Shown: positions 9,951 to 35,229 of the stretch, piece after piece | How positions within the stretch are numbered: position 1 is the first letter of the stretch | Layout of the letters: the number at the start of each line of letters is the position of its first letter | IMG/VR virus record: IMGVR_UViG_2700989400_000004 | Location: 6,939-70,938 of that record | Direction: 5' to 3' (one strand) | DNA: 64,000 nt | Source of the DNA: a virus | Lineage: Duplodnaviria; Heunggongvirae; Uroviricota; Caudoviricetes | Program-made: the position numbers and the translations under genes | The notes under the pieces: model-generated | What the model was told of the DNA's origin: nothing | Databases searched by the model: none | The model's input: only the letters and a program-made list of their open reading frames with translations

Positions 9951-11396
9951 ATGAGTATGTCATCCATACCGTCGTCCTCCCAATCCGGGAAGCTCTATGG
10001 CTGGGTCGAAAGAATTGGTAACAAGGTTCCCCATCCTTTTTTGCTCTTTATCTATTTGATAATCGTACTCATGGTGACGACGGCAATTTTGTCAGCCTTT
10101 GGCGTCAGTGCGAAAAACCCGACCGATGGTACGCCGGTGGTGGTGAAAAACCTGCTCAGTGTGGAAGGATTACACTGGTTTTTACCCAATGTGATTAAAA
10201 ACTTTAGCGGTTTTGCTCCACTTGGAGCGATCCTGGCGCTGGTTTTAGGTGCCGGCCTAGCGGAGCGCGTCGGCTTACTGCCAGCGCTAATGGTTAAAAT
10301 GGCATCGCATGTTAATGCCCGCTACGCCAGTTATATGGTGCTGTTTATTGCTTTTTTCAGCCACATTTCTTCCGATGCGGCGTTAGTGATCATGCCACCG
10401 ATGGGTGCGCTGATTTTTCTGGCGGTGGGCAGGCATCCAGTTGCAGGTTTACTGGCTGCCATTGCAGGCGTAGGTTGCGGCTTTACGGCTAATTTACTGA
10501 TTGTCACAACCGACGTGTTGCTGTCGGGGATCAGCACGGAAGCGGCGGCTGCGTTCAATCCGCAAATGCACGTCAGTGTAATTGATAACTGGTATTTTAT
10601 GGCCAGCTCCGTAGTCGTACTGACGATTGTTGGCGGCCTGATAACCGACAAAATCATCGAGCCACGATTAGGTCAATGGCAGGGAAACAGCGATGAGAAA
10701 CTGCAGACATTGACCGAAAGTCAGCGTTTTGGTTTACGCATAGCAGGTGTCGTATCGCTACTTTTTATTGCTGCGATCGCGCTGATGGTGATCCCGGAAA
10801 ACGGGATATTGCGCGATCCGATTAATCACACCGTGATGCCATCACCCTTTATTAAAGGTATCGTGCCACTGATCATTCTTTTTTTCTTTGTTGTCTCGCT
10901 GGCTTATGGCATCGCTACCCGCACAATTCGACGTCAGGCGGATTTACCGCATTTAATGATTGAACCGATGAAAGAGATGGCGGGATTTATCGTGATGGTT
11001 TTTCCCCTCGCCCAATTTGTCGCCATGTTTAACTGGAGCAACATGGGGAAATTCATCGCCGTGGGGCTGACCGATATACTTGAAAGTTCAGGGCTTAGCG
11101 GCATCCCGGCGTTTGTCGGTCTGGCGTTGCTTTCCTCTTTCTTATGCATGTTTATTGCCAGCGGTTCCGCAATCTGGTCGATTCTGGCCCCCATTTTCGT
11201 ACCAATGTTTATGCTACTTGGCTTTCACCCGGCATTTGCGCAAATCCTCTTTCGTATTGCCGACTCATCCGTATTGCCTTTAGCGCCGGTATCTCCTTTT
11301 GTTCCACTGTTTCTTGGATTCCTGCAACGCTACAAACCAGACGCAAAACTGGGTACTTACTATTCGTTAGTCTTGCCCTATCCGCTTATCTTTTGA
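9951..11396 (+). CDS. abgT: p-aminobenzoyl-glutamate transporter AbgT
   Basis: Start MSMSSIPSS… with GAGGA SD; polytopic membrane protein; C-terminal end abuts the prophage boundary. Confidence 0.85.
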   Translation: MSMSSIPSSSQSGKLYGWVERIGNKVPHPFLLFIYLIIVLMVTTAILSAFGVSAKNPTDGTPVVVKNLLSVEGLHWFLPNVIKNFSGFAPLGAILALVLGAGLAERVGLLPALMVKMASHVNARYASYMVLFIAFFSHISSDAALVIMPPMGALIFLAVGRHPVAGLLAAIAGVGCGFTANLLIVTTDVLLSGISTEAAAAFNPQMHVSVIDNWYFMASSVVVLTIVGGLITDKIIEPRLGQWQGNSDEKLQTLTESQRFGLRIAGVVSLLFIAAIALMVIPENGILRDPINHTVMPSPFIKGIVPLIILFFFVVSLAYGIATRTIRRQADLPHLMIEPMKEMAGFIVMVFPLAQFVAMFNWSNMGKFIAVGLTDILESSGLSGIPAFVGLALLSSFLCMFIASGSAIWSILAPIFVPMFMLLGFHPAFAQILFRIADSSVLPLAPVSPFVPLFLGFLQRYKPDAKLGTYYSLVLPYPLIF

Positions 11397-11488
11397 ATGG
11401 GTAGTTTATTGTAAAATATATTTATATTCAATGCGTTATGTTTTATTTTTGATTTTGATTTATCAATTTGGTCACTATTTGGTACACA

Positions 11489-11516
11489 AAAAGAAACGAG
11501 GCGTTAGCCTCGTTTC
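11489..11516 (-). terminator. intrinsic terminator downstream of tail-fibre gene
   Basis: Stem GAAACGAGGC/GCCTCGTTTC with GTTA loop; T-run on minus strand (ttctttttgtg) just after the tail-fibre stop. Confidence 0.5.
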
Positions 11517-11545
11517 GCGCGGCGATGTTCTTCGCACATCACCTT

Positions 11546-13630
11546 TTACTCTTCGCTTCCGGTCAACTGCTTAACAAGCGCAACCAGTTCGCTTACCTGA
11601 TTTTCAAGCGCGGTAATGCGTGCATCTTGAGTAACTATGGCTATATCTTGATCCTTACATACTCTGACGAGATATCCAACGATGCCGGAGTAATTAACAC
11701 CCAAAACAATTTTTTCACCAGTAAGCACGGTGCCGTCACTTGTCGGTCCTGGCATCTCTTTTGTTATTGTTACTTCGCGAACTACTTGCGGCAATATCTT
11801 TTGCCATTCCTGTGCTATAACACCAGCGCACGCCCTATTATCACCAATAAAATTGAATGTATATCCGTTAACGTGCTGCAATAATTTTCTGGCCTCCTGT
11901 ATTTCCATAATATTTTCTTTTTCATTTATATCTGATGTTTGTGTTAATTCTGAGCAGGAGACTTTACCGGATGTGAAGATATCTGCGGTTGATGTTATTT
12001 TTTGTGAGAAGTTGGCTGTTGCTGTTACGTTCATTTTTCCAGCAAATACAGCGTTGGAGTCCGACTGAAGTTTTGTTTTTGCTCTTACTGTACCTGCGGT
12101 TATTGTTGTTGGCGATGATAACTGCTCCGCATAGGATTGCGCATTGGCTTCTGATTCTGCGGCTGCGGCTGCTGCTGCTGCTGCGTTTTCCGCTTCAGAT
12201 GTTGCGGTGGCGGCACGCTCTTCAGCCAGCACGCTGTAACCCTCTGCAGCGTCTCTCGCGGCTATGGCTTCATCCCGCGCGCTGGTCGCTGTGTTAGCGG
12301 CGCTGGTCGCGGCGGTCGCGGCACTGGTAATGGTAGCCGCCTGTTCAGTTGCAGTGGTTGCCTGCGCCACTGCTTCATCGCGGGCCGCTTCAGTGGCGGT
12401 CTGCGCGGTCTGTGCCGCTTCTGCGGCTTGGGTGGCGGCGGTTGCTTTTTGGGTTGCTGTATTTACGGCGGCTGATATCTTCGATTCGTCTATAGCAATA
12501 CTACTAGCGCTTGCTTCCGCTGCTTCTGCGGCGGTTTCTGCGTCGTTTTTATGCTCAAGCGCTGCGGCGGCGGCAGTGGTTGCCTCATTCGCTTTTTGGG
12601 TCGCTGTGTTAGCGGCGCTGGTCGCGGCGGTCGCGGCACTGGTAATGGTAGCCGCCTGTTCAGTTGCAGTGGTTGCCTGCGCCACTGCTTCATCGCGGGC
12701 CGCTTCAGTGGCGGTCTGCGCGGTCTGTGCCGCTTCTGCGGCTTGGGTGGCGGCGGTTGCTTTTGCTGCCAGTTCTTTTTCATCGATAGCGATATTAGCG
12801 GCGGTTGTTTCTGCTGCTGCGGCTGCGGCTTCGGATTTCTCCGCTTCTTCCTTCGCATACATGCGCAATTCATAAACAGCGGCACGATCTGCCGCTACGG
12901 CTTCGGCATCTGTATTGGCTGCTGCGGCGGCTTGGGTGGCGGCTGACGCCTGTTCAGTTGCTACTGTTGCTCGTTCAGTTGCGACGACTGCTCTCGCGGT
13001 AGCTTCGTCGCGTGCTGCTTCGGTAGCAGTCTGCGCGGTCTGTGCGGCGGTGGCGGCATTGGTGGCGGTAGTAGCTTGTTCGGTCGCTACGGTTGCCTGT
13101 GTGGCGGCGGTGGCGGCTTGTTCACCAGCCAGCACGCTGTAACCTTCTGCGGCATCTTTCGCGGCAATAGCTTCATGCCGCGCGGCGGCGGTTGTTTCAA
13201 CGTCTGCGGCGGTGGCGGCGGCGTTGGCGGTTGATTGCGCTGTTTCTGCCTGAATAGCGGTTAACAGTGCTTCTACCTGCGCGGCATCACCATAATTTTT
13301 CCAGTATTCAACGGCGGCATAGATCTCTGATTCCTGCCCGGTGAAATAGCGTAATGCTTCCGCTACGTCTTGCGCCAGCCCGTCAACTGAGATCGAATCG
13401 CACAGTAAAATACTGTAAGCAGTACCCGCCGGAATATCCGGTGATGCTGCCGGGGTTATAGATAATTCCGTTTCACTGACAATTTCAGTGATGGAAAAGA
13501 TCTGAATAGGGTCGCTTTTTACAATAACTGTGCACCCCACGCGGATCATGGATAAGGGTGCTTTAAAATTTGTACCCGTCCCGGTCAGCGTGTTACCGGA
13601 TACGGCAATACTTCCAATGGTGTAGATCAT
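11546..13630 (-). CDS. tail fibre protein with Ala/Thr-rich repeat rod
   Basis: 694-aa ORF; long A/T-rich internally duplicated segment; C-terminal globular domain (…GYTFNFIGDNRACAGVIAQEW…); last gene of tail module. Confidence 0.7.
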   Translation of the reverse strand: MIYTIGSIAVSGNTLTGTGTNFKAPLSMIRVGCTVIVKSDPIQIFSITEIVSETELSITPAASPDIPAGTAYSILLCDSISVDGLAQDVAEALRYFTGQESEIYAAVEYWKNYGDAAQVEALLTAIQAETAQSTANAAATAADVETTAAARHEAIAAKDAAEGYSVLAGEQAATAATQATVATEQATTATNAATAAQTAQTATEAARDEATARAVVATERATVATEQASAATQAAAAANTDAEAVAADRAAVYELRMYAKEEAEKSEAAAAAAETTAANIAIDEKELAAKATAATQAAEAAQTAQTATEAARDEAVAQATTATEQAATITSAATAATSAANTATQKANEATTAAAAALEHKNDAETAAEAAEASASSIAIDESKISAAVNTATQKATAATQAAEAAQTAQTATEAARDEAVAQATTATEQAATITSAATAATSAANTATSARDEAIAARDAAEGYSVLAEERAATATSEAENAAAAAAAAAESEANAQSYAEQLSSPTTITAGTVRAKTKLQSDSNAVFAGKMNVTATANFSQKITSTADIFTSGKVSCSELTQTSDINEKENIMEIQEARKLLQHVNGYTFNFIGDNRACAGVIAQEWQKILPQVVREVTITKEMPGPTSDGTVLTGEKIVLGVNYSGIVGYLVRVCKDQDIAIVTQDARITALENQVSELVALVKQLTGSEE
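12286..12449. repeat. direct repeat copy 1 inside tail-fibre gene (~164 bp)
   Basis: Near-identical to 12600-12763; encodes repeated …AAQTAQTATEAARDEAVAQATTATEQAATITSAATAATSAANTAT…. Confidence 0.6.
12600..12763. repeat. direct repeat copy 2 inside tail-fibre gene (~164 bp)
   Basis: Near-identical copy of 12286-12449, offset 314 bp in the same frame. Confidence 0.6.
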
Positions 13631-13663
13631 CGCAATGACTCCATTATGTTAATTAACGGAATA

Positions 13664-13678
13664 ATTCTACCATTTTGT
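13664..13678 (-). promoter_or_regulatory. conserved motif TTTTGTGATCTGYGT upstream of late gene (copy 1 of 3)
   Basis: Same 15-mer at 19964-19978 and (1 mismatch) 25932-25946, each under 50 nt upstream of a minus-strand start (tail fibre, L, tape measure). Confidence 0.35.
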
Positions 13679-13812
13679 GATCTGCGTTGCATTTTATGCT
13701 TGCACAAAATGTATTTATTGATTTATGCCAATACAATAAATCATTTACAGTGAATGTAACTTGCCACAATTTATGATGTAAATTATTGGCGTAAAAATAA
13801 AAACAATGCATA

Positions 13813-13836
13813 AAAACGGGGCTTATGCCCCGTTTT
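13813..13836. terminator. bidirectional intrinsic terminator after J
   Basis: Perfect hairpin CGGGGC-TTAT-GCCCCG flanked by T/A runs on both strands, immediately after the J stop. Confidence 0.5.
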
Positions 13837-13840
13837 ATTT

Positions 13841-16800
13841 TTATGCTGTAGTTGATGCGCTAAATGATCCTGTTCCTCTTGATACTAGCATTGTCGGAGA
13901 ATACAAAGCCATACAATATGAGTAGCCTTCTGATGCTGATGTTTGTGGGCAATATATTTCCCCGGTAATCCTTGATGTTGTTAAACCAGAAAAAGCGCAT
14001 TGCACTGTTAATGTGCATCCACCATAAGGTACGTAGTATTGAATTGTTTTACTTTGACCTCCGCAACTAAACGTTACGTTATAAGTTGATCTATATTCAC
14101 CAGATGTCAATGTAATCGTTGCCATAAGCATAACTGATTTCGTCAATGCACTGGTTGTGCTGTCGTTATATGTGATGGTTGCTTTATAACTTCCGTTATA
14201 CCCAAGTACTCGATCTGGACCAACACCCATGTTAGCAACGTCACCAACAAATGATGTGGCTTCAACTACTCCCTTAAATTTACCGTCAGTTGCGTTAATA
14301 GTACCATTAAACACCCCAGAATTAGCGTATACCGTGCCGCGTACTGTTACGTTATTAAATTCAGCGTTACCATTCTTATTAATCATCCACCCGGCGGAAC
14401 CGGAAACATAATTGGATGATTGGATTTGCTGCGCAATTTTTGCGGTAGTAATCGATGCGTCTTTAATAAACGCTTCGCGCACATACATTGCACCATTCGT
14501 AACATAGAAAGGTGTCGTATATGTGCCGTTTGCCGCCGTCATTAACACAAAGCGGTCAACAAGGAAAATGCACTGCGATTGTGTGCTTGTGCCGCTGCCA
14601 GTCAGGCCAAGCGAGATACCGGAAAAATATTTCATTCCGTTACTGTCTGCGGCGATCTTAACGCTCCACGTTGCCGACATGTCTGATTCAAGGCTGGTGA
14701 TAGCGGTTTTGTTTTCCTCAATTGATACTGATTGCCCCTCAATTGACGCCGTGATACTTTCGATCTGTGTGGCGGTCGATTCCTGGTAAGACGTAAACGC
14801 TTCGCTCCACTCCGTAATCGACGCCTCGTTTGCTTCCAGTGATGCGCTAATCTGCGCAAACTGTGTAGCGTTGGCTTGTTCATGTGTGGCTAATGCCTGA
14901 TCCACGCTGCTGATCGCTGATGAGATATCGCCGTCTACTTTCGCCTCAAGGTTATTGATGGATTCAGCCGTGGATGATTCCAGATCGGTGATTGTCTGGT
15001 TGATCTCCGTTAAGCTGGCCTGGATATCCTCGTTTACCTGGCTTTCCAGTTTTTCGATTGATTGGCTTGTTGAGCTTTCAAGCGTCGCGATGGTCTGCTG
15101 TAGTTCGGTTACGTTAGCGCTGATTTCGTCATTAACCTTGCTTTCAAGCGTGGTAAGCGCCTGCGCGGTCGCTTCCTTCTCTGTAGCAATAACTGAATCA
15201 ATGCGCTCGATTTCCGCCTTCGTTTCTGCTTTCTGGTTTTTATATTGCGCCGTTAACGTGGTGCGGGTGCTGGTGTTAGCCAATGAGTTATTCATAAGCG
15301 CAATGGCTGCGTTTTGCAGGCTGGCGCGGGTCTGCATTAGCTCGTTTTCTTGCTCCGTCAATTCTACGCTGATTTCGTTAATCTGGCTTTCATGCTCCCC
15401 GATCCCGTCCTCGTTGTTTTTTACACGTTCTTCCAGATCGGCGGTTGACTCCTTCAGGTCGGTAACAGCCTGGTCAATGTCTACCGTGGTTTGTTTCAGT
15501 TCTTCCACGTCACCCATTAAACCGCCTGTTACTTCGCCTATGGAGTCCTTGATCATGTTCTGGAATTGCTCGCCTTCCATAACTTCATTCAGCACGGCGT
15601 CTGTAATTTCCTCGAAGTTTTCGGAAGGTTTACCGCTGGCTTCGATAAAGTCAGATACACCGAAAGCGTTTTTTGTGCGCACGTAAACGTAATACGTATG
15701 GCCCGTTGCCATACCGCCGAAGGTCCATTGATACCCGCGCCCGGTGAATTGCGCTGATGTTGTTACCTGGCTGAAGTCAGTGATCTGGTTTTCTCCGGCA
15801 TAATAGAATTCGTAACTGGTATCGGTCGTTAGCGTGGTGCTGCTGATCGGGTAAACAGTCGCCTGGAAAACACCTGGCACCCAATTAACGCCGACCGGGG
15901 CCGCTGGCGCACCAATCACCAGATCTACAATACTTTCCGCCCCCTTCATGCCAGTGTCATTACGCCCGCGAATACCCAACGTGTAATTCCCTGCGTCGAG
16001 GCCATAAAATTCATAACGGTAATTCGTGGTTTCATAACTTGCCACCACGCGCCCGTCTGCGTTATATACGCGGATTTCGAAGGTCAGGGGATGCGTTGTT
16101 GTCTGCGTCTCCCAGGTGGCGCGGCATTGAACCGTTTCTGACCCAACGTTTACCACTTTCAAATTTTCGATGTTCGGGACACGGAAGTGATTTAGCGTGT
16201 CGCTACTGATTTCGAAGATTGCGCCTTCATCGACTACCGCCTGTTTGTTCGGGTCGTGCTGCGCGGCTTCGATGGTGTATACGCTGTTATTTTCGGTTTC
16301 GGCTACGCTGGTGATCCGGCATAAAACGGGTTTTGCTGCTTCAGTGGATACAGCGAAAACGGTCCCGTTACGAATCCACGCCGGGGCCGCCGCTAAGGTG
16401 ATCTCATTTCCATTCACCCCGGTGATCTGGTGTTTTTTAAATTTGCCATCACTATCGAGCAAGCTGATGGTGTCGCCTGCGGTGATGTATTCTGAATCAA
16501 CCTTATCGACCGTTATCACCTTGCCATTGTTCGCCACGATACGACCGCCTAAACGAGCGCCCGCGCGGTTATTGTCGAGGATCTCGATGATATCCCCTGG
16601 TGTAAAGTGAATCGCGTCACGGGCCATTTTAAACGTGAATTTTGACGGCTCGCGTTTTGCTGTTTCTATCAGCCACTTGCCCGCGCGGTACGCTTGCCCG
16701 CGTGATGTGCACCCGAACGCCTCTAACGTGGTTTCGTTGTAACCATCACGGGCGATCAGTTCATCGTCTGCTACATACTCTTTTGATTGCTCCCAGCCGT

Positions 16801-18022
16801 TCTTCGGGTCAGTCCAAGATACGATCACGGCGTTATAACATTCCGCACGGGCGATACTTGAACGAGTAAACGCGCCATCAACGACATTTGCATTTGTAAT
16901 AGTGGCGATCGGATCTTGTGGCGCATCGATCATCACCGTAAGGCGTTGTCCGTCCCATAGCGCCATACCTCTGAACATCCCGGCGATATTGTCCAGTAAG
17001 TCGCGGGCGCTCATCTGCTCTGTAATGTACGCATTAAGCGTAACGCGCGGCTCAAGGCCGCCGTAACCATCATTGACTAACTGGTCGCAGTATTGGGAAA
17101 GCGTATATAATGCGCCGTCATCAACATCAATATAGCCAGCATGACGGGCAAGGCCAAAACGCTCGTTTTTAACCAGATAACGGAAGATCCAAGCGGGGTT
17201 ATTAGTGTACGCCTGCTTGAAGCCGCCAAGCCATAATCCTGAGTAAGTGCGCGTTTCCGGGTTGTAGTTATCAGGGATATCAACAATCAGCCCGCGGAGG
17301 TGATAAGTGCGGGTAGGCGTGTCAGCGTACTGATCATGGTCGATCACTGCGCCAGCTATAGCCGTGTGAGGGTAAGATAGGTTATCGTCGATAATTTCAC
17401 TGTAACTATTCCATCGTGTATTGTTGTTCAATAAATCGCCAGTGCTATCGGGTGTAATACGACGAACCCGAATATCGAACGGGCTTTCACTAGGTGCGCA
17501 AATAATATGAGACTCAAGATATTCACCGCTAATTTTACCGGTAATAGAAACGGCTTTAACAGGCGTCCATATCGTTGATGATGATGGTTTTACGTCAATC
17601 ATCATCATAACGGTTGAATTGTATTGATTCCCTTCATCATCGCTTTCTACAAGAACATCCACCCCAACATTCAACCTGACTCGCGTCACGTTGGGATCGG
17701 ATACAGTGCGAACTAACGGGGTGTCGTGTGTTACCTCGGTGTTAACCATAACGGTCGATTCAATAGCATTAAAACCATTGATCGGCGATTGGTTAAGTGT
17801 ACCAGGACGCCAGGCGACACTAACGCCGGGGATACTGACATGACCCGCAGTATCCGTAATAGGTGTATCATTAAGCATCACGCAGTTCAACGGCGCGGCA
17901 GCATTAACCGGACCGTAGATCGGGCCTTCACTCAATATATCTAATACGCGATAAAACTGTTTATGATACAAATTGTCATTAAGTAAATCTGGTGTGCTAC
18001 CGCCACCACCACCACCGCCCAT
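13841..18022 (-). CDS. J: host-specificity / central tail fibre protein (lambda J homolog)
   Basis: 1393-aa ORF; conserved J-type stretches (…LSEGPIYGPV…, …AFGCTSRGQAYRAGKWLIET…). Confidence 0.85.
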   Translation of the reverse strand: MGGGGGGGSTPDLLNDNLYHKQFYRVLDILSEGPIYGPVNAAAPLNCVMLNDTPITDTAGHVSIPGVSVAWRPGTLNQSPINGFNAIESTVMVNTEVTHDTPLVRTVSDPNVTRVRLNVGVDVLVESDDEGNQYNSTVMMMIDVKPSSSTIWTPVKAVSITGKISGEYLESHIICAPSESPFDIRVRRITPDSTGDLLNNNTRWNSYSEIIDDNLSYPHTAIAGAVIDHDQYADTPTRTYHLRGLIVDIPDNYNPETRTYSGLWLGGFKQAYTNNPAWIFRYLVKNERFGLARHAGYIDVDDGALYTLSQYCDQLVNDGYGGLEPRVTLNAYITEQMSARDLLDNIAGMFRGMALWDGQRLTVMIDAPQDPIATITNANVVDGAFTRSSIARAECYNAVIVSWTDPKNGWEQSKEYVADDELIARDGYNETTLEAFGCTSRGQAYRAGKWLIETAKREPSKFTFKMARDAIHFTPGDIIEILDNNRAGARLGGRIVANNGKVITVDKVDSEYITAGDTISLLDSDGKFKKHQITGVNGNEITLAAAPAWIRNGTVFAVSTEAAKPVLCRITSVAETENNSVYTIEAAQHDPNKQAVVDEGAIFEISSDTLNHFRVPNIENLKVVNVGSETVQCRATWETQTTTHPLTFEIRVYNADGRVVASYETTNYRYEFYGLDAGNYTLGIRGRNDTGMKGAESIVDLVIGAPAAPVGVNWVPGVFQATVYPISSTTLTTDTSYEFYYAGENQITDFSQVTTSAQFTGRGYQWTFGGMATGHTYYVYVRTKNAFGVSDFIEASGKPSENFEEITDAVLNEVMEGEQFQNMIKDSIGEVTGGLMGDVEELKQTTVDIDQAVTDLKESTADLEERVKNNEDGIGEHESQINEISVELTEQENELMQTRASLQNAAIALMNNSLANTSTRTTLTAQYKNQKAETKAEIERIDSVIATEKEATAQALTTLESKVNDEISANVTELQQTIATLESSTSQSIEKLESQVNEDIQASLTEINQTITDLESSTAESINNLEAKVDGDISSAISSVDQALATHEQANATQFAQISASLEANEASITEWSEAFTSYQESTATQIESITASIEGQSVSIEENKTAITSLESDMSATWSVKIAADSNGMKYFSGISLGLTGSGTSTQSQCIFLVDRFVLMTAANGTYTTPFYVTNGAMYVREAFIKDASITTAKIAQQIQSSNYVSGSAGWMINKNGNAEFNNVTVRGTVYANSGVFNGTINATDGKFKGVVEATSFVGDVANMGVGPDRVLGYNGSYKATITYNDSTTSALTKSVMLMATITLTSGEYRSTYNVTFSCGGQSKTIQYYVPYGGCTLTVQCAFSGLTTSRITGEIYCPQTSASEGYSYCMALYSPTMLVSRGTGSFSASTTA

Positions 18023-18035
18023 AGTAACCCCCTTA

Positions 18036-18566
18036 TTAACTTACAACATCTAAGGCGTCTTTATTATTGGTTGTGTCAATACCCAGGGAACCAACATTTG
18101 ACCCTATTTTCATTTCACCCAATAAGATTGGAACGGGTCGCCCCTGGCCTACTCTGTTTTCTACACTGGTGTAAGTGTTATTAGTGATGCGCCCATCCTG
18201 CGCACTTTCTGCTGATGTTTGCGGCTTCATGTTGCGATACATATAAATAGAATAAGCGACGCTCGCCACCGTAAGGCCAACCAAAAGCCAACCAACAAGA
18301 CCAATCCCAGCTACCCCGCCCTCGATTAACGGCGCGATAATAATTGTCGTTCCGTCTGGATATTTGTTATTAACAGCCACTACGCAATTTTTTTCATCAC
18401 AATCCCTTCCTGCGATCCGCAATCGTAATGGCGTACCTAAAAATGCTCGCTTAAAATCCTGATTTTGTGCAACCAGCAAGCGAAGTCCCTGCGCTGGTGT
18501 TTCGACATTTAGACACATTTTGCTGTAATATCTTCGGAAATTGCCCGTAAATCTAAATCTGAGCAT
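18036..18566 (-). CDS. I: tail assembly protein (lambda I-like)
   Basis: Position between K and J; hydrophobic central segment; start uncertain (alternative ATG at 18518). Confidence 0.55.
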   Translation of the reverse strand: MLRFRFTGNFRRYYSKMCLNVETPAQGLRLLVAQNQDFKRAFLGTPLRLRIAGRDCDEKNCVVAVNNKYPDGTTIIIAPLIEGGVAGIGLVGWLLVGLTVASVAYSIYMYRNMKPQTSAESAQDGRITNNTYTSVENRVGQGRPVPILLGEMKIGSNVGSLGIDTTNNKDALDVVS

Positions 18567-19240
18567 TTGTTATACCTCCATACTGAATGCATTTGCTTGA
18601 TATACGCGGGGCGCATTTGCTCTCTACGACTTAACAAACCAGCGATATCGTGATGTAAAATAGTGTTATTGCCTAAATAAACCATTGCGTGGCACGGATC
18701 AGCGCCTTTAAACGGCTGCCTGATGATCACGTCCCCCGGCTGAATACTTTGCGCGTCAACCTGGAAAAACCCGTTTAACGGCAAGTTTTTTAAATACAGG
18801 TTTTCACCACGTAACCACCACCCATCAACGCTTTCGAAGTCAGGCAGATCCACACCGCAAAGGTGATAAGCATCCCGAAAAAGCGTGTAACAATCAGTTG
18901 TCCCGTATATGAATTTTCGGCCTAACAGGTGCGCCACCGGACGGAATTTTCTAATCTTCCCGCCGGAGTATAAGAACCACGGCAGCCCGGAAATAACTTG
19001 CCGTTGTCGATCTATTGCCGACAACACCGGAACATCATCAACGTGAGAGTGAAAAACGGCAGTTATAACTCCTAACTCGTCCGCCTTGATGTAATCGTCC
19101 GGCGAGATTTTGAAACTGTTGCGCGGCGTTTCTGACACGTTAGCGCACGGGTAAAAATACTCGTTATCTACTACTAATCCGCAGACTTCCTCAAACGGGT
19201 GAGCGGCGGCATAACGAGACATTAAATCTTCCATCACCAT
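18509..19240 (-). CDS. K: tail assembly protein (lambda K-like; NlpC/P60 + JAB-type)
   Basis: …AAAHPFEEVCGLVV… and …HSHVDD… motifs as in K-family proteins; start placed at internal ATG 19240 to avoid long overlap with L. Confidence 0.6.
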   Translation of the reverse strand: MVMEDLMSRYAAAHPFEEVCGLVVDNEYFYPCANVSETPRNSFKISPDDYIKADELGVITAVFHSHVDDVPVLSAIDRQRQVISGLPWFLYSGGKIRKFRPVAHLLGRKFIYGTTDCYTLFRDAYHLCGVDLPDFESVDGWWLRGENLYLKNLPLNGFFQVDAQSIQPGDVIIRQPFKGADPCHAMVYLGNNTILHHDIAGLLSRREQMRPAYIKQMHSVWRYNKCSDLDLRAISEDITAKCV

Positions 19241-19242
19241 AA

Positions 19243-19947
19243 TCACCCTACCTTGCTGGAACCAGGGAAACAGGCGATCGGTAGCGCTGCTGGACGCGGG
19301 AAACGTAAACGACAACCGCTTAGGCGGTGACTGCATCTATCTAAATTCAGATCATTGGTTGGTACATCCTTATCAGTAGCCACCGGACCGCCAGAATACA
19401 TACATCCATCGCCCCTATATTGCCATTGACAAACATCCGCCAGGATAGTCCGGCCTGGGATAATCGCTTTATCTGCGTCAATCGGCGTTGATAACTCATA
19501 CTGAACCTGATCTGCTGTTTCTTCTGCCATTGCTTCAATGACGTAAAAAGATACAGCCTCAATAGATGGATCTGCGTCTGGATTGCCGTTAGGGAAGTTA
19601 ACGGCGTCCAGGTATTTAACCTCCACCTGGCGGCGCGTAACCTTCATTCCTCTAAGGTCGTTGAAATCGTTATTCATCCCCGTAATGAGTCCGCCGATAT
19701 TGGCTACAGCCATTTGAGGACGTGAATAAACGCCCTCGTTTTTCATTTCGAAGCCAGTAGCCTCGATCGGGTAGCTGTTGTAAGTTAATCCCTTCCAGAT
19801 AACCGGGCCGTAATAGCCATTCGCGCCGGAATGGAAGCGGATAACCTCGCCACCCAGGGGCGACAAGTCCAGTTCGAACAAGTCAATCACCGCGCCCACA
19901 CCAGCGTCCACGGAATCAATAATCATCTCTGTAGGTATATTGCGCAT
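19243..19947 (-). CDS. L: minor tail protein (lambda L-like)
   Basis: C-terminal Cys motif (…CQWQYRGDGC…CSHRLSGC…) as in lambda L; ATG at 19947 with GAAGGTGAG SD. Confidence 0.7.
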   Translation of the reverse strand: MRNIPTEMIIDSVDAGVGAVIDLFELDLSPLGGEVIRFHSGANGYYGPVIWKGLTYNSYPIEATGFEMKNEGVYSRPQMAVANIGGLITGMNNDFNDLRGMKVTRRQVEVKYLDAVNFPNGNPDADPSIEAVSFYVIEAMAEETADQVQYELSTPIDADKAIIPGRTILADVCQWQYRGDGCMYSGGPVATDKDVPTNDLNLDRCSHRLSGCRLRFPRPAALPIACFPGSSKVG

Positions 19948-20076
19948 TTTCTCACCTTCTGATTTTGTGATCTGCGTCACGCTAAATCATACCAAAATGG
20001 ATTGATCGCGGTTTATACAATATGTATATTTTACTCAAACGGAAGCACAGTTAACAAAATGGCGCGGAGGTGTGAG

Positions 20077-20232
20077 ATGGCTGATAAGGTGTGGAGGTTG
20101 AAGGTATTCCTGTCAGGTGGCAGGGAAATGACTGTAGCTCTGTATAAAGACGAAGGCGAGGCACTGACTGACGCGCTATTACTCACTGAAGACGAACGCG
20201 TTTTGGGGTACAGAATCGAACCTGTCAAATGA
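20077..20232 (+). CDS. hypothetical protein (moron, 51 aa)
   Basis: Opposite strand to tail operon; GGAGGTG SD 6 nt before ATG. Confidence 0.4.
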   Translation: MADKVWRLKVFLSGGREMTVALYKDEGEALTDALLLTEDERVLGYRIEPVK

Positions 20233-20244
20233 GAGGTTAACGAA

Positions 20245-20592
20245 ATGCAAAAATATAGTCTTGATGTGTGGTTAAGTGGTTGCAAGGAGTGTTTCGGATT
20301 ATTTGATAGCGAAGAGGCAGCTTTGGAAGAAGGAAGGATTCTTGAATGTAGTTTAGGCCATCCAGTGAAATATGCCGCTAATCCGGTGCAGATAATTGAT
20401 GAGGTGGAAAACATGAACCCGAAAGATATTAACTTTAACGTCAATGTTGAATTTGCTGATTCTATGGATCAGTCTTGCCCTGGTGAAATACACGTAAAAG
20501 GTTTCCCGGCAGACGACATGAAAGCGAAACATGAATACGAAAAAGCGGCGAAAGATTTCTGCATCGACAATCTGAGCGCGTTTAATAAATAA
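20245..20592 (+). CDS. hypothetical protein (moron, 115 aa)
   Basis: GAGAGG SD; protein-like translation. Confidence 0.45.
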   Translation: MQKYSLDVWLSGCKECFGLFDSEEAALEEGRILECSLGHPVKYAANPVQIIDEVENMNPKDINFNVNVEFADSMDQSCPGEIHVKGFPADDMKAKHEYEKAAKDFCIDNLSAFNK

Positions 20593-20601
20593 GGCGGCAA
20601 T

Positions 20602-20850
20602 ATGGCGCGGCGTAATCACGGGGATTATGTGTACACGTTGAAACAAGCCGCCCGCCTTATTGGCTATCATGAGCATGAATTTATTGATTTGCTGATTGAG
20701 CGCGGGATTCTGTACCAGGTTTGTTTAACGTTGTACCCAAAAGCTAAATACCTACAGGAAAAATTATTCATCATCATGACGGATGAAAACCAAGTTAATC
20801 ATTCATTCGTCACTGACAGGGGCGTTAATTATCTGCGTGATAACTTATAG
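20602..20850 (+). CDS. hypothetical protein, possible HTH (moron, 82 aa)
   Basis: AAGG SD; helix-turn-helix-like stretch YTLKQAARLIGYHEHEFIDLLIERGIL. Confidence 0.45.
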   Translation: MARRNHGDYVYTLKQAARLIGYHEHEFIDLLIERGILYQVCLTLYPKAKYLQEKLFIIMTDENQVNHSFVTDRGVNYLRDNL

Positions 20851-20859
20851 GCGGTAATT

Positions 20860-20931
20860 ATGGATGAAGTAATCGAAAATGTTTTGGTAGTGGCTGGCGC
20901 GATTGCCATCGTTTATGCCTTTCTGAATTAA
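20860..20931 (+). CDS. micro-protein, single hydrophobic helix (23 aa)
   Basis: MDEVIENVLVVAGAIAIVYAFLN; AGGCGG SD. Confidence 0.3.
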   Translation: MDEVIENVLVVAGAIAIVYAFLN

Positions 20932-20942
20932 TGGGGTGAATC

Positions 20943-21080
20943 ATGAAAATTGAAGTTTTAGCACTAATAGCAATGGGCTTGATAGTATTTGGCGTGCACG
21001 CTGCGGATTGGGACTGGTGCGCAATAGCTGAGAACATGGCGCACGCTCACCCAATAGGCTTGATGCACATGAACTTCTAA
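20943..21080 (+). CDS. small exported or membrane-anchored His-rich peptide (45 aa)
   Basis: MKIEVLALIAMGLIVFGVHA / ADWDWCAIAENMAHAHPIGLMHMNF: signal-peptide-like N-terminus with VHA-A site; GGGGTGA SD. Confidence 0.4.
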   Translation: MKIEVLALIAMGLIVFGVHAADWDWCAIAENMAHAHPIGLMHMNF

Positions 21081-21084
21081 CACG

Positions 21085-21110
21085 AAAAACCCCGCTTCGG
21101 CGGGGTGTTA
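21085..21110. terminator. intrinsic terminator (UUCG tetraloop hairpin)
   Basis: CCCCGC-TTCG-GCGGGG; T-run on minus side, A-run on plus side. Confidence 0.45.
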
Positions 21111-21124
21111 TAGGTAGGTGAGAC

Positions 21125-21301
21125 ATGAAAGAAGGTGTGACTTATCAGCATGTGTATACATTTGAAATTTACCGCATATGTGATGGTTATGTTGAAGAGT
21201 ATAAAATCTTCCCCCGTGGATACTGGAAGAGAGTTAAGATTTCTGTAAGGTTATTAAAGAAAATGTTTAAAAGAGGATTAATTCAAGAAATTGATTTTTA
21301 G
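21125..21301 (+). CDS. hypothetical protein (moron, 58 aa)
   Basis: AGGTGAGA SD; basic C-terminal half. Confidence 0.4.
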   Translation: MKEGVTYQHVYTFEIYRICDGYVEEYKIFPRGYWKRVKISVRLLKKMFKRGLIQEIDF

Positions 21302-21308
21302 TAAACAA

Positions 21309-21337
21309 TAAGGGGGTTACCCCCCTTATTGTTTTAT
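21309..21337 (+). terminator. intrinsic terminator ending plus-strand moron island
   Basis: AGGGGG-TTA-CCCCC hairpin followed by ttattgttttatttg. Confidence 0.45.
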
Positions 21338-21617
21338 TTGTCGTGACGACTTTCTATTTCATAGATGATCGCCATTCCTACCGCGATAATAAATACCATT
21401 ACCAAGCCATCAACCAGCATATTAAACGCCCTCAATCAAGAATAAATATTCCTTCCCTTCGTAAGATCTGCATCCCACATACCCGTCGCCGTAGTCATGC
21501 AGATACCAGGTGTTCCCCTTATCACTCACCACTGTGAGATTATCGATCTGGTAGTCTTCGAATAGCGTAAATGATTCATCGCCAGTCTTAACGCACATCC
21601 CGTACATATTGCCCCCT

Positions 21618-21971
21618 TTAATTCATCACTTGCTCAAACATCGCGGTTAGCGTGAATACGGGGCCATCCTTCGTCATGTTCCATTTTCGGCAGACAAAAA
21701 GCCTTTGCACTCCATCCATCGACGGCGACCAGTAAAACGCCTCGACCGCGCCGCGCGCCCGTAAAAACGCCTCCGCCTGGATCGCTGGATTGCCAGCGTC
21801 ACCGCATCCGGCGCTCGACCCCTTAAAAACCACGCTGTAATCGTCGAGCAAGGGATTAATCCCTTTAACCTGGCGTTGCTCATAGCCATCACCCAGCTTG
21901 ACGACCGACACGTTCGGCTCCCTGGTTACGCTGTAGCTACGCTGCGGCGTCCAGGTAAACACTTCCGGCAT
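21618..21971 (-). CDS. M: minor tail protein (lambda M-like)
   Basis: 117 aa; conserved …LGDGYEQRQVKGIN… and C-terminal …FEQVMN as in M-family proteins. Confidence 0.7.
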   Translation of the reverse strand: MPEVFTWTPQRSYSVTREPNVSVVKLGDGYEQRQVKGINPLLDDYSVVFKGSSAGCGDAGNPAIQAEAFLRARGAVEAFYWSPSMDGVQRLFVCRKWNMTKDGPVFTLTAMFEQVMN

Positions 21972-22004
21972 AATTCCCCCTATAAATTACATTTTGTATA
22001 CATC

Positions 22005-22030
22005 TTTACGCGCTTCTACGCGAAAAATGA
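22005..22030 (-). promoter_or_regulatory. conserved ~26-nt element upstream of M (copy 1 of 2)
   Basis: TTTACGCGCTTCTACGCGAAAAATGA here vs TTTACGCGTTGCTACGCGGAAAATAG at 35175-35200 upstream of portal; both followed (minus orientation) by SATGTATWCA then the start codon. Confidence 0.35.
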
Positions 22031-22140
22031 GAACTTCATCACAAGAATTATAACCAGTTTACAAAATGGCTTCACACAGGACGCAACAAGATGTATACAG
22101 AAAGCAAGAAGAAAAGCAGTACCAACAAAGGAGGCCCAAG

Positions 22141-22308
22141 ATGAAACGCAACGATAAACACTACGCGGTCGTAATGCTTAATAACGCATTTGAACAAGTA
22201 GAAGTGGCGATCGTTAAAGGCTTTGATGATGCATTCAAAATGGGCCAGTTCTACATGAACGTGAAGGAAAACGAATACCGGGATTTCTACCTGAAAGCGG
22301 TCAACTAA
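22141..22308 (+). CDS. hypothetical protein (moron, 55 aa)
   Basis: Strong AGGAGG SD 8 nt before ATG at 22141. Confidence 0.4.
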   Translation: MKRNDKHYAVVMLNNAFEQVEVAIVKGFDDAFKMGQFYMNVKENEYRDFYLKAVN

Positions 22309-22325
22309 GGATGATGGGGTGAGCT

Positions 22326-22580
22326 ATGAAACTGGTAGCGATTGATAAAAATTTGAAGGTACAGAAAAACGCGCAGGACCGGATCATCAAAAAGGGTAAG
22401 GCTTTATTAAATGCTTTCCTGAAAAAAGAAGCTCACCCCAAAAAGTTACGCGATGGTTACGGTTATAAATTTGATATCAACCCCGATTGGCGGTTATTCA
22501 GCGATGATTTGAAGGTGTGGTTAATTATCGAGCATCATTATTATAATGTTAAATGTGGGGTTAAGGGGGCGCATAAATGA
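22326..22580 (+). CDS. hypothetical protein (moron, 84 aa)
   Basis: GGGGTGAG SD; lysine-rich protein-like ORF. Confidence 0.45.
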   Translation: MKLVAIDKNLKVQKNAQDRIIKKGKALLNAFLKKEAHPKKLRDGYGYKFDINPDWRLFSDDLKVWLIIEHHYYNVKCGVKGAHK

Positions 22581-22814
22581 GATGGCGTGAATTACATAGC
22601 TACGGCATCCGGTTTTCCCTGGTTGTCCTGAAAGATTGGTTTAATCGCCAGGTGGCAAACGATGCGTTAATCCCGTTTGCTGATAACAAGCCTTATAAGC
22701 GCGATGGGGTGAGATATGGAAGATGATAAATTTACATGGCGGGAGATCTGGAATATTTGGCAGGTAATTTTCGGAAGGGGATATATTGCGCGGAATGGTC
22801 GATTGTAGAGGTAA

Positions 22815-22997
22815 ATGATGATTATTCATGAAACGGAAGAATGTCGGCGGATTAATCTTAGTATTGAGTATGACGAAAGATTATGGCTTGAAAGCGACTG
22901 CGAAATAATCGTAATAGACAAAAAGCAAGCCGCCGAACTGATAAGCGCATTACAGCTTTATGTAAACAACGAATTTAAAAATGACGAAGTTGAATAA
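22815..22997 (+). CDS. hypothetical acidic protein (moron, 60 aa)
   Basis: GAGGT SD; followed by terminator. Confidence 0.4.
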   Translation: MMIIHETEECRRINLSIEYDERLWLESDCEIIVIDKKQAAELISALQLYVNNEFKNDEVE

Positions 22998-23003
22998 AGA
23001 AAA

Positions 23004-23040
23004 CCCCCAGCTTTCGCCGGGGGTATTATTTTATTTTTTG
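23004..23040. terminator. bidirectional terminator between moron island and tape-measure gene
   Basis: CCCCC…GGGGG hairpin followed by tattattttattttttg. Confidence 0.4.
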
Positions 23041-25916
23041 CGCGGTTGTAACATGCCACCGGGGCGTGTGCTTTGTTCCCTAACTACCCCCATAGCCACG
23101 CGTTTCATTGTGTCTTCAAGTCTGCGGCTATCCTCATCACTAAAACCGTTTGTCGTTTGAACGGTAATACTAACAGGCATGTTGATGCTGCCACCACCGC
23201 CCAAGTCGCGGTTAGGAGTAATACGCCCACCTTCACCGGGGATTATGTACTGTTTCCCGCCAGTAGTGGTAAACAGCTCCGGTTTACCGTGCTCACCAAC
23301 CCTATAAAGATTGCCGCCATTAACCGCACCGCCGTTGTAGCGTCCGCCACCGAAAATGGACGTCGCCAGCGACATGATTGCAGACAATGCCGCCGCACCA
23401 GCCGCCGCCCAGCTACCGCCAGTTGCCGCCGCCGTCGCCGCCGCCGCCGGGGCCGCCGCCGCTGCAATCTGACCTTGCGCCGCTACCGCGCCCGCCGTGG
23501 TGCTGGCTTGCGTTGCCTTGCTCTGACTTTCCATCATGATTTGGTCGGCTATCCAGTTTGCTGCAATCTGAGATAAGCGGTTGCCTACCGTGCCGAGAAT
23601 GTTGCTACCCAGGTTAGCAAACATCTCGCTTAGGGATTGTGTGCCGTTGAGCAATCCGGTAATGGCGTTACCCATGCCGCTTGTTAAGCCGTTGACGCAA
23701 TCGCCGATAAGCGCGTTAGTGTCGCTTTGCGCTTGCCATTGCTCCCACTTAAGCGCGGTTAGCTGTTGTTCATAGGCTAACTCTTCCATTTTCAATTGGG
23801 CCTGTGTAGCGCCTAAATCAGTGAGCATTTGCTTTCTGATAGTCCATTCATTTTGCAACTGCTGAATAGGGTCTACCTGGCCTTTTTTCTTGTCTTCATC
23901 AGAAACAAGGCTATCCCATTTGGCTTGTTGTTCTTCCTCGCGTAGCTGTTTCAGCGTGTCAGACAACGCCTTGCTTGCGCCCTCCTTCGCGGCTGTATAT
24001 TCCAGATAAGTGATCTTACCTTGCTTGTACGCTGCATCCAGGGCTTTTTGTTCTTCGCCAAGTTTACGCATAGCGGCGGCGTCTTTGTTGTACTGGTCGG
24101 AAATATTTAAGCCTTCATCGCCTAACTTATCCCAATCGGATTTTTTCGACTTCTTGCCCTTCCCGTCCTTGCCGCCACTGCCACCGCTGCCGCTTCCCGT
24201 TCCGGTTGGTTTCGGCGGAACATATGTACCATTAATACGGGCTTGTGCTTCGTCGGCTTTCTCGTTGGCTTTTTCAAGGTTTTTATTAGCCGTGTCTAAC
24301 TTACCTTCTAAGGTCTTCTGAGTATCCCCGGCGACACCTAGCGCCGCTTTTGCAGGTCCGGCAATTTCTGGATCATCACTCTGCGCTAATTTTTCCAGGA
24401 TGGCGCGGTTTTTCACCATGCGATCCAGTTCGGCTTTTGCCTTCCGGGCGTTTTCCTCAATGTCTTTGAGTTGTTTGTTTATCTCAATCAAAGCCGCTTC
24501 CAGTTCATTTTTGCTCATATCGTCGAACGACATAGCCAATTCGTCGATTTTGGCTTTTGCGTTGGCGGCTTTCTCTTCAGTGCTTTCCATGTTAAGGATA
24601 AGCGTACCCAGGCAGATCGCAGCGGTCATGATTGCGCCAGCGGGGCCACCAAGTAACCCTAACGCGCCATTGAAGATCCGCATCCCGATGCTGGCGGCTT
24701 TTGCTGCTGTACCGGACGCAACGATTGCCGCGTTAGCCGTGGTGGCAGCGGTGCGCATAGTCGTGTAAGCGGCGGCGGTTTGCGCTTGCGCTACACGGAG
24801 GCGAGCAAGCGCGGCGGTGTGGGCGTTTGTACCCTGCGCGGCCTGGTAGTGGGCGCGGGCCTCCCCTTCTGCCTGCAATGCTGCTTTAAGTCCGGCGGCG
24901 GCTGTGTGTAGCTGCTGGCGTGCCAGGTTGGCTTCTGCTGCTGCCTGCTGCGCGGCGGCCTGTGCTGCTTTCTGGTTGGCGGCTGCCAGCCGGATGTTTT
25001 CCGCCGTTGCCTGGATGATGCCACCTAACGCCCGTCCACCCATTACAGCACCAAGTGCAATGGCGGAGGCGGTTACAACGTCCAGGTTTTCAGATAGGGT
25101 GATCAGCGTGCTGTTAAACGCGTTAATCCCGCTACGGATCACAGAGTTTTCACCAAAATACTTAGTCGCGTTGTTGGTGGCAACTGTGAAGGCATCCGAC
25201 ATAGTGATCGCCATATTGTCGAACTCTTTATCTACTTCGGACTTCATCGCCCGGACCGCTGCGATAATTATATCTTTCGTGATCTTGCCGTCCTTCGCCA
25301 TTTCACGCAATGCGGTACTGGATACGCCCATTGATTTTGCGATACCTTCCGCCAGGCGTGGCGCGTTCTCCATTACGCTATTGAATTCATCGCCGCGCAA
25401 TTCACCAGATCCCAAGGCCTGGGCCAATTGTCTGATCCCGCCTTCCATTTCGCTTGCGGATGCGCCGGACACCTGAAAGGATTTGTTAATCGTTTCCACG
25501 ATGCTTGCCAGGTCACGCCCGCTTAGTCCGCTGTCACGCGTTGCGCGTTCCAATTTGGAGTAAAGCGCGGCGGTCGCATCCAGTGGTGACATTGATTTCT
25601 GTGCGGCCTTAAAAACCCGGTTTGTAACTTCTTCCAGTGATTCATTTGACCGGACGGAGTTAACCAGCTTGTTGTTTACTTCTTGCCAGGCGTTGGCGTA
25701 CTCAATGATCTTTCTTGTCACCAATGCCGCACCAACCGCGCGGGCAACCGTGGATAGGCTCGCCAGGGATTTACTTGCCTTATCAGCGGCGGTGTCTACC
25801 CGTTGCAGGTCTTTTTCCATCGCTCCGGTTGCCTTGTCTACTTCTTTCTGTGCAACCAGTAGCGATCCGGTTTTGGCGTCGATCGTGTATTCAATCGCGC
25901 CTACATTTTTAGCCAT
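23031..25916 (-). CDS. tail tape measure protein
   Basis: ~960-aa coiled-coil Ala/Gln-rich ORF with Gly-rich segment; ATG at 25916 (MAKNVGAIEY…) with CGGAGA SD. Confidence 0.8.
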   Translation of the reverse strand: MAKNVGAIEYTIDAKTGSLLVAQKEVDKATGAMEKDLQRVDTAADKASKSLASLSTVARAVGAALVTRKIIEYANAWQEVNNKLVNSVRSNESLEEVTNRVFKAAQKSMSPLDATAALYSKLERATRDSGLSGRDLASIVETINKSFQVSGASASEMEGGIRQLAQALGSGELRGDEFNSVMENAPRLAEGIAKSMGVSSTALREMAKDGKITKDIIIAAVRAMKSEVDKEFDNMAITMSDAFTVATNNATKYFGENSVIRSGINAFNSTLITLSENLDVVTASAIALGAVMGGRALGGIIQATAENIRLAAANQKAAQAAAQQAAAEANLARQQLHTAAAGLKAALQAEGEARAHYQAAQGTNAHTAALARLRVAQAQTAAAYTTMRTAATTANAAIVASGTAAKAASIGMRIFNGALGLLGGPAGAIMTAAICLGTLILNMESTEEKAANAKAKIDELAMSFDDMSKNELEAALIEINKQLKDIEENARKAKAELDRMVKNRAILEKLAQSDDPEIAGPAKAALGVAGDTQKTLEGKLDTANKNLEKANEKADEAQARINGTYVPPKPTGTGSGSGGSGGKDGKGKKSKKSDWDKLGDEGLNISDQYNKDAAAMRKLGEEQKALDAAYKQGKITYLEYTAAKEGASKALSDTLKQLREEEQQAKWDSLVSDEDKKKGQVDPIQQLQNEWTIRKQMLTDLGATQAQLKMEELAYEQQLTALKWEQWQAQSDTNALIGDCVNGLTSGMGNAITGLLNGTQSLSEMFANLGSNILGTVGNRLSQIAANWIADQIMMESQSKATQASTTAGAVAAQGQIAAAAAPAAAATAAATGGSWAAAGAAALSAIMSLATSIFGGGRYNGGAVNGGNLYRVGEHGKPELFTTTGGKQYIIPGEGGRITPNRDLGGGGSINMPVSITVQTTNGFSDEDSRRLEDTMKRVAMGVVREQSTRPGGMLQPRKK

Positions 25917-26046
25917 AGCGTTGATCTCCGTTTTTGTGATCTGTGTAACTATTTTATACAAAATGGCTTTGCTTTAACGACTCCATTTTGTATAAAGAAG
26001 CCATAGGGAATAGGTAGTTAAACAAACAAGTTAAGTGGGGTGGGTT

Positions 26047-26229
26047 ATGAACGTATACGAAGCCATCAGAAATATTAGAAATATCGAGAAAAATGTAGGT
26101 AACGAGGCGGCGCAAGAAGAATGCAAAATGTACATGAAGAAGCTACCACGCCGTGAACAATTTGTTTTGGGTGGCCCTAGCCTAGCGATGGAATTCGCAA
26201 GATTAAGAAAAGAAATGCTCAATAACTAA
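26047..26229 (+). CDS. hypothetical protein (moron, 60 aa)
   Basis: GTGGGGTGG SD; charged helical peptide upstream of lipoprotein gene. Confidence 0.4.
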   Translation: MNVYEAIRNIRNIEKNVGNEAAQEECKMYMKKLPRREQFVLGGPSLAMEFARLRKEMLNN

Positions 26230-26247
26230 TATTTAACTGGGTGAAAC

Positions 26248-26985: not shown

Positions 26986-26992
26986 CACAAAC

Positions 26993-27017
26993 GCCCGGTT
27001 AATTCCGGGCTTTTTTC
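26993..27017 (+). terminator. intrinsic terminator after lipoprotein gene
   Basis: Perfect GCCCGG-TTAATT-CCGGGC stem-loop followed by T6. Confidence 0.55.
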
Positions 27018-27691: not shown

Positions 27692-27727
27692 CCTAAAAGA
27701 AAGGGGCCGTTTGGCCCCGTTGCGTTG

Positions 27728-35152: not shown

Positions 35153-35174
35153 AATGTTTACTCCTGAATACATG

Positions 35175-35200: not shown

Positions 35201-35229
35201 AAAAATTCGTGAGGATTGTGAGGCAGATT

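Follow-up and report, generated by a model that had tools for sequence, protein, structure and literature searches.

The tail-fibre-side junction of an mEpimmI-type prophage integrated in the 3'-terminal region of abgT

Phage P4 and most elements that target tRNA genes restore the 3' end of the gene into which they integrate (leuX is an example of such a target), and phage 21 and the element e14 carry an alternative icd 3' end that keeps that gene functional. The window analyzed here, a stretch of 64,000 nucleotides from IMG/VR virus record IMGVR_UViG_2700989400_000004 (positions 6,939 to 70,938 of that record), contains the gene abgT on its plus strand (9951..11396) and, joined to it, a prophage whose closest described relatives are the coliphages of the mEpimmI group. 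This non-lambdoid group was defined by Negrete-Méndez et al. (Front Microbiol 2025, PMC11893012), who distinguished four integrase types, each using one chromosomal site: types Ia and Ib integrate at the 5' end of ydaM (dgcM), type II in the 3'-terminal region of abgT, and type III at the start of mppA. Their genomes of ~54 kb share the order int, ninB...dnaB-type helicase, cro-side genes/repressor, erf-ssb, ninG-rusA-Q, lysis genes, structural genes, tail fibre and attachment site (att), and group traits also include the N-like antiterminator Gp17, nut sites, Nus dependence and an immunity group I repressor (Rep021) that is highly conserved across the group (PMC11893012). Listed as type II in the same paper are mEp010/013/044, 09-00049, UMNK88, RM9245, E21845, 190, 127, GN04592, GN05505 and MLI107.

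We are confident that the window holds most of a complete 54.1-kb mEpimmI-type prophage with a type II integrase (Int), integrated site-specifically 27 codons before the abgT stop, and that positions 11379-11546 are its tail-fibre-side junction, composed of host abgT sequence and the P' arm of the phage attachment site. A first-pass annotation of the window, made from the letters alone, had proposed a prophage in the 3' end of abgT, with phage DNA beginning within ~150 bp of the stop codon and a C-terminus replaced by the phage. Integration into the 3' end was borne out, by the break in homology described below, by a repeat at the far end of the prophage, and by an empty site in a related strain.

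When window positions 10900-11900 were used as a megablast query against 5,426 complete Escherichia coli genomes, abgT was found in 4,915 of them, and in essentially all abgT-bearing genomes the similarity ended at query base 495, which is window position 11394. A more sensitive search across the junction reproduced this breakpoint. Up to 11394 the gene is 99.1% identical to abgT of strain K-12. Counted from the K-12 start codon in the translated open reading frame (ORF), it consists of 481 codons and a stop, compared with 508 codons in the native gene, and the protein ends ...SLVLPYPLIF*, lacking the K-12 residues beyond Phe481 (LVVWLLMLLAWYLVGLPIGPGIYPRLS). The K-12 protein is indeed longer, as the first-pass annotation had stated, but by 27 residues and not ~25. 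At the breakpoint the codons read CTT ATC TTT | TGA, versus CTT ATC TTT TTG GTG in native abgT. The TGA at 11394..11396 (plus strand) is a hybrid codon, in which T is the last host base and belongs to abgT, and GA belongs to the phage P' arm; the first phage base, 11395, is thus inside the stop codon, a tighter boundary than the ~150 bp first allowed. abgT is simply truncated, and the phage gives the GA of the stop codon and zero added residues. The equivalent abgT in strain N1286 is annotated by NCBI as a pseudogene with a 'missing C-terminus'.

Inside the 64-kb window, a search for the 3' remainder of abgT and for ogt, fnr and uspE found none of them, because the window stops ~1.5 kb short of the far end of the prophage; its right end is still phage and encodes a Lin1244-domain protein, a DnaB-type helicase and NinB. 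The far end was read from the source contig (GCA_001420135.1, LIVK01000004.1), which was matched through the exact NinB protein sequence of the window. The retrieved sequence (here L004) is an exact continuation of the window, the two agreeing at 11,257 of 11,257 bases of their overlap. Beyond the last window position come a minus-strand gene for a tyrosine integrase of 400 aa, a phage arm of 109 bp, the 16-bp sequence TATCCGCTTATCTTTT, the last 83 nt of abgT, ogt (whose start lies 10 nt after the displaced abgT end), fnr and uspE. The same 16 bp form the left att core at the abgT side of the prophage (11379..11394), and the identical right att core lies beside the integrase gene, outside the window, at window-equivalent positions 65521-65536 (L004 12778-12793). 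The first-pass annotation had suggested, as a check, to look for the junction core as a direct repeat at the far end; the contig contains it there, followed by the end of abgT and by ogt. No long repeat of the core other than this 16-mer was present in the window as extended to 65.7 kb, and within the window the junction segment had no repeats beyond chance 11-12-mers. With one core copy counted, the insertion extends from 11395 to window-equivalent 65536 and measures 54,142 bp; the part within the window is 11395..64000, and int and the P arm belong to the final ~1.5 kb, which lies outside it.

The empty site was found in strain 442/2, which is near-isogenic and prophage-free, and in which an intact abgT of 508 codons is followed by ogt. 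Alignment with this strain, the other check suggested at the outset, showed abgT continuing 27 codons past the junction. Window positions 1-11394 aligned to 442/2 with 99.73% identity and the right flank, starting from the second core copy, with 99.69% identity. The two alignments overlap on the 442/2 sequence by exactly the 16-bp core, the hallmark of a conservative, site-specific insertion in which all host DNA is kept.

The phage attachment site (attP) was found intact in free phages. MagusPhagus (PP925836) holds GAAATGATAGAAATGGCGTTATCCGCTTATCTTTTGAATGGATAACTTAATG internally, between its integrase and tail-fibre genes, and its attP corresponds, as one piece, to the right-junction P arm, the core and the left-junction P' arm of the prophage. 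The records of mEp013 and mEp044 are linearized near the att site and, when circularized, gave the same attP. The P' arm in the window (11395..11488, 94 bp), which is joined to the core and P arm in all three of these phages, has a guanine-plus-cytosine (GC) content of 23%, versus 47% for the window; the first-pass annotation had correctly called this gap AT-rich. A scan of IMG/VR with the core-P' junction returned eight contigs of 32-57 kb, four with an intact attP and four with an abgT-phage junction. The bacterial site (attB) reads CTTATCTTTTTGGTGG and the attP of free phages reads CTTATCTTTTGAATGG; excision of the prophage would be predicted to give attP GGCGTTATCCGCTTATCTTTTGAATGGGTAG and attB CCCTATCCGCTTATCTTTTTGGTGGTATGG.

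Two variants of the attP core were observed. One, TATCCGCTTATCTTTT, which this prophage shares with MagusPhagus and one IMG/VR contig, agrees with attB over 16 bp; the other, TACCTACTTATCTTTT, present in mEp013, mEp044, N1286 and three IMG/VR contigs, agrees with it over 11 bp only. The first variant could represent host bases picked up in an earlier cycle of integration and excision. Both prophage ends in the N1286 lysogen are as in this prophage, and its two junctions retain differing left-hand bases; strand exchange therefore takes place within CTTATCTTTT. The shared sequence that is required would then be only these 10 bp (CTTATCTTTT), or 11 bp in attB alleles with a preceding A, as in K-12. 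The immediate in-frame TGA, whose T is the last core base, is kept in all type II attPs. This is not read as an adaptation, because once the T is fixed a stop would arise by chance with a frequency of 3/16.

The same junction was found in 12 of the 5,426 complete E. coli genomes. Eight of the 12 (09-00049, UMNK88, RM9245, E21845, 190, 127, GN04592 and GN05505) are in the published type II list and four (N1286, CB7286, OZ392470 and 2017C-4173W12) are outside it; MLI107 was not among the 12. Matches to the phage end that started further from the core belonged to strains placed under types I and III in PMC11893012.

The breakpoint, the direct repeat, an intact attP in free phages, an empty attB in strain 442/2 and the recurrence of the site were all observed directly, and the following mechanism is proposed. 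A P4-like tyrosine integrase would recombine attP with a short stretch of abgT that is identical to it and lies 27 codons upstream of the native stop. This sequence would be the 16 bp TATCCGCTTATCTTTT in the present phage and, as a minimum across its relatives, the 10-11 bp of CTTATCTTTT. Recombination splits abgT, so that the 5' 481 codons stay in place and run into a TGA completed by phage bases, and the last 83 nt, together with ogt, are displaced by 54 kb to a position beside the integrase gene. Unlike the target of many phages that integrate at gene 3' ends, abgT is not rebuilt.

Judged by sequence comparison, the prophage is a complete temperate siphophage of the mEpimmI group with a type II integrase. 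With the late region alone as query (24.6 kb), only seven records of the phage collection were matched (mEp013, mEp044, mEp010, mEp554, mEp515, mEp021 and MagusPhagus), at 81-82% nucleotide identity over 49-62% of the query. Coverage was 58-62% for mEp013, mEp044, mEp010 and MagusPhagus, and mEp021 was matched with 81.6% identity at 49% coverage; these are values for the late region only, and the published retrieval rule compares the whole genome with mEp021, at ≥70% identity and ≥60% query coverage (PMC11893012). The replication/immunity region had matching relatives in 35 E. coli genomes. The CI-like repressor of immunity group I (55358..56005, minus strand), in which Pfam recognized a helix-turn-helix (HTH) domain and Peptidase_S24, shares 93% amino-acid identity with that of mEp021 and 91-93% with those of the six remaining group members in the phage collection; the next match, outside the group, is at 52%. 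Gene order, taken from the ORF map and Pfam assignments, is collinear with the annotation of the N1286 prophage and with the phage records. Compared with the type II phages mEp010/013/044, the prophage has the same insertion point, attP core and arms, gene order and ~54-kb size, with 91% identity in Int and 91-93% in the repressor, but its late region is only ~82% identical over ~60% of its length and it has its own alanine-rich tail fibre of 694 aa. The core of its attP also agrees with attB over the longer stretch, as in MagusPhagus and in contrast to mEp013 and mEp044.

The prophage of LIVK01000004.1 is absent from Table 1 of PMC11893012. It is an uncatalogued member of a published group at the published site of that group, and the integration site itself was already known and is ordinary. 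What is gained is the assignment of a 54-kb element to a recently described, gut-prevalent group of coliphages.

The divergence of the late region from the cultured mEp phages (~82% identity over ~60%), and the fact that the prophage is known here from sequence alone, would be compatible with a decayed, immobile remnant whose junction is a fossil. This we regard as improbable. The length of 54,142 bp agrees with that of the free phages (53.0-54.7 kb), both att junctions are intact, and full-length ORFs encode the integrase, the repressor, the helicase, the tape measure protein, J and the tail fibre.

The first-pass annotation had favored integration at the abgT 3' end with a phage-supplied replacement C-terminus that restores a functional gene, on the model of phage 21/e14 and icd or of tRNA genes. 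Integration is truly in the 3' end and the stop codon is partly derived from the phage, as such a model would have it, but the frame CTT ATC TTT TGA leaves no room for phage-encoded residues after Phe481, the identity between attP and abgT covers only 10-16 bp, and the 27 displaced codons encode a hydrophobic segment that is present in a solved homologue. We consider restoration very unlikely on these grounds. The likeness to the 21/e14-icd system is that the target is again the 3' end of a protein gene; here, instead, the outcome is a 27-codon truncation, and the 3' end of abgT is left unrestored, unlike that of the targets of P4 and tRNA-targeting elements.

A native short allele of abgT, with the prophage boundary further downstream in intergenic sequence, is scarcely credible. 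The ORF looks complete with its own stop, and nothing else favors this reading, which the first-pass annotation had itself named as the outcome that would overturn its proposal. The alignments contradict it: every abgT compared continues past 11394, the missing 83 nt sit at the other end of the prophage, and the sequence from 11395 onward is contiguous with phage sequence in free phages. Finally, the short core and a target inside coding sequence might suggest non-specific (Mu-like transposable) insertion or illegitimate recombination/deletion, which has next to no chance of explaining an identical junction in 12 complete genomes and four IMG/VR prophage contigs of differing backgrounds, a tyrosine integrase adjoining the att site, an attP with the same core in free phages, and a clean 16-bp duplication with all host sequence kept, no 5-bp target duplication, and no transposase found in the element. 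The TG at the junction had led us to consider Mu-like transposition, which was rejected.

Several points weigh against site-specific integration by a type II integrase as set out above, or limit parts of it. The far junction is outside the window and is read from a matching public contig. The abgT site rests on comparative sequence both in the published work and here, and validation by polymerase chain reaction in PMC11893012 covers the ydaM site (mEp021) only. No match to the consensus WATCAANNNNTTR for integration host factor was found in the reconstructed attP. A sigma-70-like hexamer pair (TTGAAT, 18 nt, TATATT) spans the junction at 11393-11422 on the plus strand, pointing into the phage. 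It was the one plus-strand pair in the promoter scan of the junction, a count not above that of shuffled sequences, and no such pair was found in the intact attP of MagusPhagus.

The integrase has a P4-type architecture, with an Arm-DNA-bind_3 domain, a central domain and a catalytic Phage_integrase domain; the Pfam matches, obtained on a 411-aa call of the gene, were PF13356, PF22022 (weak) and PF00589. The same domain architecture, with a DUF4102-type N-terminus, occurs in P4-like integrases. As in P4, the int gene is directly beside attP and transcribed away from it, and the arms contain repeated sequences. The R...HxxR...H...Y residues of tyrosine recombinases are recognizable, including a C-terminal Tyr region, and are candidate catalytic residues. 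The motifs TGCRTSE, HDLRRT, LGHK and IYDQYDY are visible in the alignment with the mEp013 integrase, with catalytic roles assigned by inspection. Over 399 aa the protein is 91% identical to the mEp013 integrase, which is type II according to PMC11893012, and it is only 50% identical to the type Ib integrase of mEp021. The first ~60 residues of the type II and mEp021 proteins have roughly 70% identity in a by-eye count, and the rest is far less alike. A conserved integrase N-terminus and a variable catalytic region were already noted in PMC11893012.

Each arm of the att site carries one copy of a conserved element. In the P' arm it is the 24-bp sequence AATTTGGTCACTATTTGGTACACA (11465..11488, plus strand), of which 22 bp are conserved and which contains two TTTGGT(C)AC half-sites; it is a candidate arm-type Int-binding site. 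The second direct copy, at window-equivalent 65376-65399 (L004 12633-12656), ends 3 nt upstream of the int start codon ATG. An alignment of six attPs showed the 22-bp form TTTGGTCACTATTTGGTACACA once per arm in direct orientation, the copy at 11467-11488 lying 73-94 bp from the core and the other 122-143 bp from it on the opposite side. The element occurs a single time within the 64-kb window. 'First copies of the phage motifs' had been noted in the gap after abgT in the first-pass annotation, and this holds for one 16-bp core and one 22/24-bp element, although their partners lie only beyond the window end.

All five type II attPs have both 22-bp copies, as does the attP of type Ib phage mEp021, where the intervening sequence is unrelated. 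Phages of types Ia/Ib, including mEp021, are members of the same group and have the elements in both arms and the N-terminal arm-binding region of Int in common with the present prophage; mEp021 differs in the core, the core-proximal arm, the chromosomal target (5' ydaM/dgcM) and, at 50% identity, most of the integrase. We infer that the elements may be arm-type sites read by the conserved Int N-terminal domain. Alternatively, they may do no more than delimit a module that has been swapped. The sequence GTCACTAT within the element resembles the arm-type consensus of lambda Int, (C/A)AGTCACTAT, though the N-terminal domain of Int belongs to a different Pfam family.

In the P arm of type II attPs, in addition, the heptad ACGATRK occurs six times, as two groups of three whose members are spaced by exactly 10 bp (-99/-89/-79 and -36/-26/-16 relative to the core; window-equivalent 65422-65511, L004 12679-12768, outside the window). 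The heptads are conserved in five of the five type II attPs, and the attP of mEp021 (type Ib) lacks them. They are candidate sites for an accessory factor or a directionality factor, or additional candidate sites for Int.

We suggest, tentatively, that the att region may be a retargetable cassette, in which the 22-bp arm elements and the Int N-terminal domain are kept, and the core, the arm repeats close to it and the catalytic domains are swapped. If true, this would explain how one lineage hops among dgcM, abgT and mppA within ~20 kb of chromosome. The abgT version would then, as a side effect, inactivate AbgT and uncouple ogt from the abg operon, a lysogenic conversion by disruption. No description of the 22-bp arm elements or of the truncation of abgT was found in the text of PMC11893012.

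The 27 residues lost from AbgT contain an unbroken hydrophobic run, and the C-terminus of AbgT aligns to the C-terminal end of MtrF (PDB 4R1I), with query residues up to 503 of 508 included. From the structures of MtrF and YdaH, we take the lost segment to be the last transmembrane helix. Since a hydrophobic stretch that aligns to the C-terminal end of MtrF is lost, the truncated AbgT is probably inactive or impaired. In K-12, ogt natively starts 10 nt after the abgT stop; here it is 54 kb from the abg promoter and behind the phage P arm, and its expression may be altered as well. Lysogens of this integrase type lose the last hydrophobic segment of AbgT, an importer of p-aminobenzoyl-glutamate, a folate breakdown product. 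The loss of AbgT and the separation of ogt could each give a small phenotype, and neither would surprise a specialist. For annotation, the result gives the exact boundary of the prophage and marks the short abgT as a truncated gene, not as an allele.

Between the att arm and the tail-fibre gene lies the intrinsic terminator of the tail-fibre (late) operon (11493..11516, minus strand), as the first-pass annotation had recognized. In the terminator scan it had a stem of 10 bp (11516-11493), a loop of 4 nt and a tail reading TTTTTGTGTA, and it closely follows the tail-fibre stop at 11546. MagusPhagus has the same hairpin, which the mEp013 and mEp044 records list as a rho-independent terminator. 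The tail-fibre gene (11546..13630, minus strand; 694 aa) is the last phage gene before att, and its product has a C-terminal Peptidase_S74 chaperone domain (PF13884, E = 1.4e-9), ahead of which run long, Ala/Thr-rich, near-perfect internal repeats (...ATAATQAAEAAQTAQTATEAARDEAVAQATTATEQAATITSAATAATSAANTAT...). The gene is mosaic: with the N1286 prophage, whose fibre is 1,096 aa long, it has only its final ~15 codons in common, besides the terminator and the att arm, and homology ends at 11589.

A second, unrelated integrative element occupies window positions 1-5898, between smrA and abgR. In strain 442/2, with which it is shared at 99.9% identity, this island is ~13.2 kb long; the site is empty in N1286. 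Its genes encode an HTH regulator, an AntA antirepressor (the AntA-domain protein at 3074-3874, minus strand), an Icd-like protein, a DUF927 primase-like protein, PerC, a ProQ/FinO-like protein and a P4-type integrase (4479-5729, minus strand) that is 28% identical to the prophage integrase. A 528-aa ORF at 1495-3081 (minus strand) was rejected as a mechanical artefact and is probably no gene. It had no Pfam match, only its last ~74 aa correspond to the annotated Icd-like gene in 442/2, and the rest overlaps plus-strand YlcI/YnfO-type genes and has an implausible sequence.

The island is flanked by an imperfect direct repeat of ~16 bp, TCACGATATTWATAAT, of which the copy in the window is TCACGATATTAATAAT (5883-5898). 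This att repeat also contains CACGATAT, a likeness to the ACGATRK heptads of the type II P arm that may be coincidental. The gene set of the island is satellite-like, being that of a P4-like phage satellite or one resembling phage-inducible chromosomal islands (PICI-like), and the abg operon thus lies between this island on one side and, on the other, a prophage that may be of the helper type.

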